Virus record (IMG/VR): IMGVR_UViG_2695420745_000006
From: a virus
Lineage: Duplodnaviria; Heunggongvirae; Uroviricota; Caudoviricetes
Strand: one strand, 5' to 3'
Length of the DNA: 13,211 nt
Shown here: positions 1-3,000 of the stretch, piece after piece
Layout of the letters: each line of letters starts with the position of its first letter
Position numbering within the stretch: position 1 is the first letter of the stretch
Position numbers: made by a program

Positions 1-3000
1 TACACTAAATCAGTAAGTTGGCAGCATCACCAGCCTTCTTGAGGCTACCACCTGTTTTCAGGTGTCATTCAGACGTGATTTGCCCCAGATTGGGAAAGCA
101 CGCTTTTTTCTCAGCTATCGTCCTCTTATTTTGCCGTTACATTTCTTTTTGCATTCTAATGATTAATTTACAATAATAATATCGGTAATTATTGAGTAAT
201 AATAAATTAATTATTGCAAATGTAATTTAATTCCATCTTCGCGTTATATTCCAATCTTTAATCTCCGCATGGAACAAGTTGCATGCGTGACTATATTAAG
301 ACGACTTATAACCACCAAAACATTTGCTTTGCAAGCAAAAACAGTGACCATTGACTCTAAGAAAATTCCGATCTATTGTTAGGGTCATCAAAGTTACTTA
401 ACAGTATTCCGAAATGAAAATACAAAGCAAGCTAATTGTCTTATTAAACATTATTATTGCATTTATATTATTTGAGCTTTTAGCTCAAAAATTTGGTTTG
501 AGTACATTATTTTAAAGCAAGATAAACAATATCGGGCACTCTAGTTTTTATAATTAACAATTAAACGTCCATAAAATGTTATTTACTTTTCTTCGCTATT
601 GTCATATCTTAATATAGTGGCTTACGCCACTCTACTTTCATCACATTTTGTACGTTTATGTACTCGCCATGAAGCTCTTTCATGGCGATTTTTTATTCTT
701 AATCCAAGAACATACTCCCTACCTATAGCAAAATCACTTTTTTAACAAAAGAATAACGTATTTAGGTAATCATTACGAATTTACCCTATAGGTGCTACTG
801 GCCATTCAATATCCGGTGCAGTTGATGTATCAACACGGTTCAGCAACACCCGATACTTTTTCCAAGCTTCCAGCAACAAGGTTTCTTTCTCCGTTGCGAT
901 CTCCAGATCCACAGCATCCTGAAGCGGCGCTATATGCTCACTGGCTACCTGCATCAGGCTGTTTTTTGTTTCTTCCGCCTCCCGGATCCGGAACAGTTTT
1001 TCTGCTTCCGTATCCTTCACCCAGGCTGTGCCGTTCCACTTCTGAAACTCCCCTTCCGGGGATAACCAGGTGACATTTTCCGGTAATGAGCCGAGTTCAG
1101 AAATAAATAACGCGTCGCCGGAAGCCACGTCATAAACCGTTTTACCCCGATGATCTTCAACGAGATGCCACGATGACTCATCACTGTTGAAAACAGCCAC
1201 GAAACCAGCCGGAATATCTGGCGGTGCAATATCGGTACTGTTTGCAGGCAGACCTGTATGAGGCGGAATATATGCGTCACCTTCACCAATAAATTCATTA
1301 GTTCCGGCCAGCAGGTTATAAATTTTTATGGTCCGTGCTTGTTCACTCATTCTGAATGCCATTATGCGAGCCTCACAATATAGTTAAATGCGATGTTTTT
1401 GACGGTGTTTTCCGCGTTACCAGCAGCGTTAACGGTGATGGTGTGTCCATGTGAACCAATCGCAACAGAGTGCGTATGAGCACCAATACCGACAGTATGC
1501 GCGTGTGCACCCGCAGATGCTGCTGTGCCGGACAGTGAGTGTGTATGGTTTCCTTCTGAAGATGATTTACCTACCCATTGGGAGGTGCCACTGGTTAATG
1601 AGCCACTGATACCAACCTGATTAGTCCCGCTAACTTGAGTACTCCCTGCCGGAAACATTCCAGTAGGTTGACTCCCGCTATTCGTTCTGGGCCCAGTCTG
1701 ACTATGTTGGTGGGCCCCAGCTGAACTTGTAGAGCCGCTCAGACTGTGCGTATGCGCCCCGGTGTTATTCGTGGATTTAGTGCCGTAATCAAACGACGAT
1801 GTGGTTTTCGTCCCCAAATCCGTACTGGATGCGCTGGCGCTGTGGGTGTGCGATTTAATGCCATCCTGTTCCTGAGACAATACGGCACGACCACTGGCGG
1901 GCTTGCCCTTAATCGTCCAGCCACGCATATCAGGGATCACGCCTGACGGATAAGCGGCTGCAAGTTTCGGGTAAGCAGATTTGTCAAAAGTCTGCCCCTG
2001 CATCAGGGCATAACCAGACGGAACGGTATCTGATGGCCACGGGATTGGTGCACCGACTGGATAAAACTCTGCAGGAGGATGAGCCGAGGTGTAAAGCTGC
2101 GCCCACGGCGACCAGTTTGCGTCGGTCGTATCCCGTCGTGAACGAATAAATGCCGGAGCATGAGCACCGCTTGTACCACTCCAGCCGATGAGTAACTCAC
2201 CTTCGCCAACGGCTGTCATCCCTTTCAGGTGAATGATATTTCCATACGCTGTTGGATATCCGTTGTTATACACCTCGTATAACTCAAGACCTGCTGCCCC
2301 CTGCGTATTGTCTGTCAGCGCGGCTACCCGACCTTTTGAAGCCAGATTAACTGATGATACTGCTGTTCCACCTGACGGTAGCGCCCCGATCTCTGATGCC
2401 GTTGGCTTATTTCTGGAGTTATAGTCCCTTCGCCAGCCAGGTGAATAATCTGTTCCGTGATTAATATAGGTAAACTGGGCGTTGGTTGTTCCGCCACCGC
2501 TGGATGTGGTCGGAGTGGTAATGCGGATCGTCATCGCTGACTTTATCCCCATTACTTCAATGACAGCTCCGGCGAGATGAATATTACCGCAGCCAGTATC
2601 AGTAATGATTTTATTATTGCCATAAGACCAGGAACCCTTGCACATCCAGTATGGATGGTTAAATGCTCCCTGAGAATCCAGCCACTCGATAAACTGTGCA
2701 GTCGTCCAGTTTCCTGTTGTTGTGCTTACTGACCCACCGAAGGCACGGCAGGCACCAATATTTTTCGTAAAGGTGTCTTTGCCAGGGATATCCGCACCGT
2801 TCTGATCTTTCTGCAGACGTTTCTCAGCATTGTCATTGGCTGCTTTTACTGCCTTTGGCGTTGCCGCCAGCGTTTCAGACGTGCTGTTGGTCGCGCTGCT
2901 TAGCTGGATTATCCCTTTCTGTGCTGTCGTTGCATCCTGTGCGGTGTATTTCCCGTTAGCCAGGTCATACGCGGCCTTAACGGCTTTTGGTGTTGCCGCC

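Follow-up and report, generated by a model that had tools for sequence, protein, structure and literature searches.

The phage moron is a concept reportedly due to Juhala, Hendrix and colleagues, and among the lambdoid phages it is exemplified by the lom and bor genes of lambda. The other described system of relevance here is the small membrane protein YncL, a phenotype for which (depolarisation and nucleoid condensation) has only recently been assigned. The expression of YncL rises upon heat shock and in minimal medium, its overproduction partly dissipates the membrane potential, and its production, like that of the YohP protein, results in a sub-lethal depolarisation, condensation of the nucleoid and a phage-shock response, to which YncL adds a lower rate of protein synthesis (PMC12542507). 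Among the in vivo substrates of the intramembrane protease RseP is YncL (PMC10470546). Here, we analyze a stretch of 13,211 nucleotides (hereafter the window) from the viral record IMGVR_UViG_2695420745_000006, and in particular the AT-rich island at positions 32-780, which lies between one end of an IS1 element and the tail-fibre assembly gene tfa and contains a small gene that resembles yncL.

An earlier, sequence-only reading of this DNA had proposed that something on the plus strand of the island is transcribed and then stopped before it can run antisense into the tail-fibre operon, the candidates being small hydrophobic open reading frames (ORFs), a small RNA (sRNA) or the remnant of a cargo gene cut by the IS1. 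The terminator and one of the ORFs agree with this idea; the other candidates either fail or need correction. We suggest that the ORF in question, of 33 codons, encodes a phage-borne relative of YncL, and we are inclined to see the functional core of the island, at about 350-697, as a self-contained moron whose direction converges with that of the late tail-fibre operon. There is good support for the call of the gene; the mechanism is one that we infer by analogy. The advance is an incremental one. What is described is an unannotated small membrane protein of the YncL family packaged as a lambdoid moron and not a new kind of system.

The 33-codon reading frame and its resemblance to YncL

The ORF occupies positions 414-515 of the plus strand (stop codon included), exactly where the sequence-only reading had placed it, and its predicted product is the peptide MKIQSKLIVLLNIIIAFILFELLAQKFGLSTLF. 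It forms part of a module (203-780) that recurs beside tfa in other Escherichia coli genomes. In all 36 distinct copies of this module that were examined the ORF is intact and has exactly 33 codons; it is equally intact in 49 viral contigs and in 24 of 24 metagenome contigs, the latter matched by a family-level pattern. The DNA on both sides of it has meanwhile suffered insertions and deletions, among them a deletion of 5 nt directly after the stop codon.

The nature of the substitutions points in the same direction. Between the window and the diverged Sx181 allele, which is 78.6% identical, the ORF has undergone 18 nucleotide changes, of which 10 fall in third and a single one in second codon positions. 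They result in five residue changes (V-to-I, I-to-F, F-to-L, E-to-K and S-to-Y), all conservative, and in a pN/pS of 0.16 by the Nei-Gojobori method. When the same substitutions were placed at random, 37% of the trials created a stop codon and 0.01% gave five or fewer residue changes without one (P ~1e-4); the two other reading frames contain stops and show 10-14 changes. The comparison of the window with the AF22 allele of the sit-type prophages adds five synonymous changes against one non-synonymous, and a metagenome supplied one more synonymous variant. A hairpin within the ORF (471-489) is lost in two alleles that retain the peptide; hence the constraint bears on the protein rather than on this hairpin, which was also rejected as a candidate attenuator for the same loss. 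Its pattern of substitution thus shows the ORF to be under purifying selection, and this, together with the homology described below, makes it the supported one among the candidates that the earlier reading had listed.

Such a pattern has to be weighed against the view that the locus is a functionless spacer: AT-rich DNA, silenced by H-NS and in decay, which is merely carried along by the tail-fibre genes and whose small ORF, with its likeness to YncL, is the fossil of a captured gene that has ceased to be expressed. Most copies are 95-99% identical and thus have spread recently, the surroundings are a visible patchwork of captured fragments with an IS1 deletion adjacent, and the gene lacks a Shine-Dalgarno sequence and an annotation and has one frameshifted variant. 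A decaying sequence would not, however, be expected to keep its ORF intact in every allele class, in three prophage backgrounds and over a range of 78-99% identity while its flanks accumulate indels; nor would it show a 12:7 excess of synonymous changes in spite of having about four times fewer synonymous sites, or hold the critical promoter positions and the terminator stem constant. We consider the spacer view improbable.

The relative of the peptide was revealed by its sole match in NCBIfam, which for both alleles searched is YncL (NF000537; E 1.3e-5 and 3.7e-5, 25.0 and 23.5 bits), with an alignment that starts at Met1 and covers 28 of the 30 profile positions. Aligned without gaps from Met1 to the K-12 YncL, whose translation was taken from the genome, the phage peptides score 55-60 under BLOSUM62, with 10-11 identities, and none of 100,000 shuffles reached this score, whether the peptide was shuffled as a whole or its N-terminal, hydrophobic and C-terminal segments each by itself. 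A hidden Markov model built from 15 distinct YncL orthologues, drawn from 25 genomes of Escherichia, Shigella, Citrobacter and Intestinirhabdus, gave the four alleles 21-23 bits, compared with a maximum of 5.7 among the 1,991 other small ORFs that these loci contributed, and a profile-profile comparison with hhalign gave a probability of 94.5% (E 7.8e-8) over 29 columns.

The resemblance extends over the entire molecule. YncL (b4598), a 31-residue peptide of Escherichia and Citrobacter, is two residues shorter than the phage peptide, is in register with it from Met1, shares 35-38% of its residues and likewise has a single transmembrane helix; the common positions are S5, K/R6, V/I8-9, L10, N12, A16, L19-F20, L22 and K/R26-F27-G28. 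Canonical YncL has 23 columns that do not vary among Escherichia, Citrobacter and Intestinirhabdus; about 10 of them are identical in the phage peptide (M1, S5, L10, N12, A16, L19, F20, L22, F27 and G28), several more are conservatively replaced, and N2, T7, F14, S24, W29 and F30 are not shared. The hydropathy of the 33-residue peptide is 1.6-2.5 over windows of 19 residues, and an AF2 model places a helix at residues 2-26 with a mean pLDDT of 86. Both predict the single hydrophobic helix that the earlier reading had thought worth looking for, and the product would be a single-pass peptide of the inner membrane. The earlier reading had also proposed to look for homologues among small toxic proteins; there is no match for the peptide in Pfam, PHROGs or PADLOC.

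A phmmer search of 1.84 billion representative proteins returned only the peptide itself and one frameshift variant; a scan of genomes with a degenerate, family-level pattern returned only canonical YncL, in 25 genomes of Escherichia, Shigella, Citrobacter and Intestinirhabdus; and where scans of viral and metagenome sequences detected the phage-type ORF, its product was in each case one of the peptide alleles already known. A full-text literature search had no match to the peptide sequence, and among the papers that name both YncL and prophages none is, by its title and abstract, about a phage-borne homologue.

Transcription signals and a proposed mode of action

Upstream of the gene, at 351-379 on the plus strand, a scan identified a sigma-70-type promoter-like site (TTGACT-17 nt-TATTGT) which matches the consensus at 9 of 12 positions and has a predicted start near 386. 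Its -35 hexamer, the T1, A2 and T6 of its -10 hexamer and the spacing of 17 nt are constant in all alleles, and the bases of the spacer vary. The leader, which would run from about 386 to the ATG, is AU-rich and unstructured: positions 386-440 fold at -1.9 kcal/mol (z +0.85), in keeping with a translation that needs no strong Shine-Dalgarno sequence. Leaderless translation was rejected, since no convincing promoter is positioned to start an RNA at the ATG.

The gene is followed by a 3' untranslated region of 148 nt that contains a small hairpin and then a terminator. The hairpin (AGUGGC-UUAC-GCCACU; -8.9 kcal/mol, z -4.4) was found at 616-631, two bases to the left of the 618-633 previously assigned to this 6-bp structure, and its natural variants, a C-to-U change that creates a G-U pair and a change in the loop, are compatible with the stem. 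The intrinsic terminator at 664-697 has a stem (664-688) of 10-11 bp with five G-C pairs, followed by six T at 689-694, and has a folding energy of -15.2 kcal/mol (z = -5.8) that none of 200 shuffles equalled. All alleles keep the stem, in which a G-to-A change turns a G-U pair into an A-U one. The signal is directional, because the stem read on the minus strand has no T-run. Hence, the strong plus-strand terminator pointing toward tfa that was noticed at the outset is upheld by scan, folding and direction alike. It lies 84 bp before the stop codon of tfa (781-1362, minus strand; Pfam Caudo_TAP, 4.6e-44), which is annotated as a tail fiber assembly protein in all the matching genomes. The small gene is convergent with tfa, and the place of the terminator fits the idea of the earlier reading that the tail-fibre operon is thereby protected against antisense transcription.

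The same 3' architecture, a hairpin, some 30 nt of unpaired and U-rich sequence and a terminator with its U-tract, is typical of Hfq-binding sRNAs, and it could be argued that the transcript or its 3' fragment is the real product and the ORF incidental. Lambdoid prophages are rich in sRNAs (PMC8550237; bioRxiv 10.64898/2026.05.13.724894), the segment 611-700 is nearly identical even in the 78.6% allele, and the ORF is without a Shine-Dalgarno sequence. A noncoding RNA would not be expected, however, to display the codon-position pattern and the pN/pS of 0.16 described above, or to lose the hairpin at 471-489 in two alleles that keep the peptide, and the homology to a known protein family favours a protein product. 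The near-identity of 611-700 is explicable by recombination, since the Sx181 allele becomes identical to the GF130 type from 611 onward. For the sRNA that had been listed among the candidates, Rfam has no match in 32-780 at E up to 1. PasB, suspected because its flanks carry a match to the Rfam family IS009, is located elsewhere, in the interval that separates genes I and J, and the window does not contain its probe even if three mismatches are allowed. We hold an sRNA as the sole product to be very unlikely, though an RNA of dual function is conceivable.

Several observations nevertheless weigh against the gene as we read it. The NCBIfam score of 25 bits is lower than the curated equivalog cut-off of 35 bits, and N2, T7, F14, G18, S24, W29 and F30, all invariant in YncL, are not present in the phage peptide. 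The K-12 yncL is located at a core locus between patD and ortT, whereas the phage gene is found beside tfa in lambdoid prophages. Because it falls below the cut-off, lacks W29-F30 and other invariants and lies outside the patD-ortT locus, the peptide is a diverged, phage-borne relative of YncL and not an orthologue or equivalog. Just four protein alleles were seen, and the signal of selection derives mostly from one diverged and recombinant lineage, which amounts to one independent comparison plus a smaller one. The protein collection also contains a frameshifted variant of 43 residues (P0003, MKIQSKLIVLLNIIIAFILFELLAQKIWFEYIILKQDKQYRAL), which looks like the result of a one-base frameshift in an A-run near codon 26 and so would represent at least one disrupted copy. 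RefSeq has nothing annotated under the module in all 831 genomes that carry it. Promoter-like sites are at the level of chance in such AT-rich DNA (five found, 4.6 expected), so that the use of the site at 351-379 is presumed from its sequence, and the main point against translation is that no allele has a Shine-Dalgarno sequence before the ATG. Finally, the step from the overproduction phenotypes of YncL to a natural role for the phage peptide is a weak one, being made by analogy.

With these reservations, a mechanism can be proposed. The promoter (351-379), the short, unstructured and AU-rich leader, the 33-codon gene, the 148-nt 3' region and the terminator would constitute one unit; its promoter would be used in the lysogen, and its terminator would keep the transcript from running antisense into tfa and stf. 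The peptide would sit in the inner membrane, with its lysine-rich N-terminus (K2, K6) in the cytoplasm and the invariant mid-helix Asn12 as a likely contact for oligomerisation. Acting in the manner of YncL, it would perturb the membrane energetics or the envelope stress signalling of the lysogen, and the benefit could be stress tolerance or an interference with incoming phages. A more specific version would make of the YncL-like peptide a factor of lysogenic conversion or defence, produced from the prophage, which tunes the proton-motive force of the host by a controlled depolarisation; it is speculative, and we regard it as unlikely. If it were true, such tuning could block the DNA entry or the replication of superinfecting phages, or else make of the lysogen a tolerant, low-energy cell.

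Alternatively, the locus might be a module of the type I toxin-antitoxin kind, in which the 33-residue membrane toxin is checked by an antisense or nearby small RNA and serves prophage stabilisation or abortive infection. The peptide has the size and hydrophobicity of the Hok, TisB, ShoB and Ldr-type toxins; there is a long 3' untranslated region with a conserved hairpin; a minus-strand promoter-like site at 605-576 would yield an antisense RNA; a 25-nt imperfect inverted repeat (277-301 / 607-631) resembles the 5'-3' fold-back of the hok mRNA; and YncL itself lowers viability and depolarises cells if it is produced early (PMC12542507). However, neither the antisense promoter-like site nor the inverted repeat is kept in the diverged allele, in which 4 of 12 positions of the 3' arm are changed without compensation; the fold-back pairing was rejected for this lack of conservation, and a perfect inverted repeat of 12 nt is not rare at such a composition. 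The leader at the start codon is unstructured and hence not occluded, there is no Rfam match to Sok-type or other antitoxin RNAs, and the peptide matches no toxin family in PADLOC, Pfam or PHROG. To our knowledge, there is also no RNA antitoxin for YncL. We give this alternative little credence and retain the YncL-like moron as the preferred reading.

A mosaic at the cargo end of the prophage

The island is a patchwork of DNA pieces gained by horizontal transfer, and it occupies the b region, or cargo end, of a lambda-like prophage that has attLambda as its integration site. The sharp drop in base composition relative to the flanking tail genes that first drew attention to it is confirmed by binned values: the GC fraction is 0.321 in window 1-750 and 0.47-0.61 in each later bin of 750 bp, with a trough of 0.25 at 401-600, so that the region of the small gene has 25-34% GC and the neighbouring phage genes 47-61%. 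No ORF exceeds 60 codons, as had been said; the longest that touch 1-780 have 52 (18-176) and 48 (599-745) codons, both on the plus strand.

At the left edge, window 1-31 (minus strand) gives, when reverse-complemented, the terminal repeat of IS1 (GGTGATGCTGCCAACTTACTGAT... / GGTGATGCTGCCAACTTACTGATTTAGTGTA), the IRL end of an element that lies mostly beyond the window. In strain 104 (L001) an identical junction is contiguous with an annotated IS1A transposase, which vindicates the identification of an IS1 end at this place. No target-site duplication was found when the window was compared with intact phages (window 1-32, L001 5253-6031), and 547 bp that are present in phage mEp332 (L004 1954-2500) are absent beside the IS1. 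The absence of the duplication, together with the loss of 547 bp on one side, is consistent with an adjacent deletion mediated by the IS1.

In the intact relatives the tip of a serU island is preceded by the 3' part of tRNA-Ser(CGA) and by some 290 bp of core DNA that belongs downstream of serU and that 5,423 of 5,426 complete E. coli genomes contain; the deleted piece and window 32-116 in the intact phages thus form a captured chromosomal junction, composed of core DNA, tRNA 3' part and island tip. Together with the preceding tRNA fragment, window 32-116 matches L006 3829-4085 with 97.7% identity over 257 nt. Many E. coli genomes match just this 85-bp piece (query 1-85), and among the matches listed none adjoins a tail-fibre assembly gene. 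This captured attR junction, which in the b region of the intact relatives corresponds to mEp332 (L004) 2051-2585, speaks for an uptake by the phage of DNA from a chromosome with an island integrated at serU, of whose distal, attR-side tip the noncoding window 32-116 is the sole remainder. The proposal of a cargo gene cut by the IS1 therefore survives in part: there is an IS1-cut remnant, confined to 32-116, and it is not a gene fragment, being the noncoding tip of the serU island.

To the right of this remnant, window 117-202 is an AT-rich filler characteristic of the attLambda-type lineage, which is present only in the 280 genomes and four phages that cover the whole query and does not align with the copies at the Qin site or of the sit type. 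The conserved module, whose upstream block is 203-350, is shared from 203 onward by the Qin-site copies and by the Sx181 allele, and from about 235 onward by two sit-type copies (L007, L009). Of 5,426 complete E. coli genomes, 831 (about 15%) carry it, and it always abuts tfa. It was not found on the plasmids searched, and its conserved 3' block had no match in a scan of one genome per species. The region is present in 4 of 50,697 phage records, and the culturable phages mEp332, PhiR70_1 and ev099 carry it without the IS1.

Three unrelated prophage contexts can be distinguished: that of the attLambda phage, with an identity of 99%, that of a prophage at the Qin site, by ydfJ, with 96%, and that of the sitABCD prophages (94%, 91% and 78.6%, the last being the Sx181 allele, in which positions 306-349 are also diverged). 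The neighbour of the module differs accordingly, being an AraC-family regulator or the IS1 at attLambda, ydfJ at the Qin site and sitABCD elsewhere, and in prophage PP6 of E2348/69 effectors of a type III secretion system occupy the same position in place of the module. The notion that the DNA distal to tfa is a hotspot for accessory cargo, like the b region of lambda, is in good accord with these contexts, in which the regulator, sitABCD or the effectors are found according to the prophage.

The order in strain 104 is bioA, ybhB, IS fragments, the AraC-family regulator, IS1, the module region, tfa, stf, lom and J. The regulator (HTH_AraC, 1.3e-16) is the next cargo gene of the attLambda lineage (L004 1001-1753; L001 4314-5057) and lies outside the window, with fragments of IS2/IS3 beyond it toward attR. 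In the Qin-site context a hypothetical gene of 65 codons (WP_000348576.1 / WP_001421370.1; L005 4563-4760, L010 2563-2760) precedes the module by about 240 bp and has the same orientation. The sitABCD operon of the sit-type prophages points the same way as the small gene and ends about 235 bp (L007, L009) or about 1,080 bp (L008) from the module; since it reads the same way from upstream, the equivalent of the terminator at 664-697 could also stop sit read-through transcripts in these prophages.

Some of the smaller features of the island can be set aside. The 37-codon ORF at 269-382, correctly located by the sequence-only reading and considered there as a candidate gene, has its ATG changed to ACG in the Qin-site and sit-type copies, that is, in all but the attLambda lineage. 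The PhiR70_1 record annotates this ORF (L002 2754-2867), probably wrongly. The ev099 record annotates a 55-codon ORF across a breakpoint (L003 3968-4135); its counterpart in the window, the 52-codon ORF at 18-176, was rejected since the breakpoint of the island tip (116/117) falls within it and the IS1 truncates it. Both records miss the conserved 33-codon ORF, and annotation systematically misses small membrane proteins, of which this gene is an example. The 9-bp direct repeat TAATTATTG exists at 186 and 208 but is not a signal: two repeated 9-mers occur where 4.9 are expected at matched composition, and the second copy differs already in phages that are 99% identical. The near-palindrome (323-339) is likewise real and without evident meaning, since it folds no better than its shuffles (z -0.34), is broken in two alleles and is absent from the diverged one.

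Two observations concern the remainder of the window. At 4544-8588, between stf and the other tail genes, it contains a truncated Lom (4544-5026, 160 of 199 residues), a C-terminal fragment of J (5097-7445, 782 residues) and a full-length Lom (7989-8588), an arrangement suggestive of duplication or recombination of a J-lom segment; in strain 104 only one lom separates stf from J. The sole Rfam match in the window is to IS009 (RF02111, 218 bits) at 821-1019 on the minus strand. Because this match lies wholly inside the coding sequence of tfa, the IS009 "sRNA" family may be largely a conserved piece of the tail-fibre assembly gene.

The locus among described systems

Among the sRNAs of lambdoid prophages that depend on Hfq, PasB and its like (PasA-D, AgvB, AsxR and Esr41) resemble the locus in being intergenic, in having an intrinsic terminator and in occupying a similar share of E. 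coli, and the flanks of PasB also carry the IS009 (tfa) match. PasB, however, maps between the tail genes I and J of the E2348/69 prophage PP6, whereas the locus studied here is beside tfa and shows the constraint of a protein-coding sequence. The type I toxins (Hok, TisB, ShoB, Ldr and ZorO) are likewise small hydrophobic peptides, associated with a mobile element and a long untranslated region; the phage locus differs in that no conserved antisense RNA was found, the start is not occluded and there is no match to their families.

The small membrane proteins of the chromosome are nearer. YohP, with 27 residues, is similarly a single-helix peptide of about 30 residues, but no sequence relationship between it and the phage peptide was found, and the analogy passes through YncL only. 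From yncL itself the phage gene differs in its signals: yncL has the Shine-Dalgarno sequence AAGGTGG and is reported to be induced by heat shock and in minimal medium, whereas the phage gene has no Shine-Dalgarno sequence and a sigma-70-like promoter site. If the peptide were indeed a depolarising factor of conversion or defence, the version held above to be unlikely, it would be the first phage-mobilised member of this class of stress-related small membrane proteins, and could provide hints to the function of the chromosomal YncL. That lambdoid phages carry a diverged copy of YncL, in every case where the tail-fibre operon ends, suggests that such peptides are of enough use to have become mobile, and mEp332 and PhiR70_1, culturable phages of K-12 and E. 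coli C, offer a handle on peptides of the YncL type.

It is the phage moron, finally, to which the organization of the locus is most readily compared. Like a moron, the presumed unit is an extra gene at a module boundary, with its own promoter-like site and terminator and a deviant base composition, and some lambdoid phages have it where their close relatives do not. It is because its composition is unlike that of its neighbours, its signals are its own and its presence among relatives is patchy that we favor this interpretation. The locus differs from the morons so far described in that it is much smaller and, instead of being embedded in the late operon, is convergent with it.

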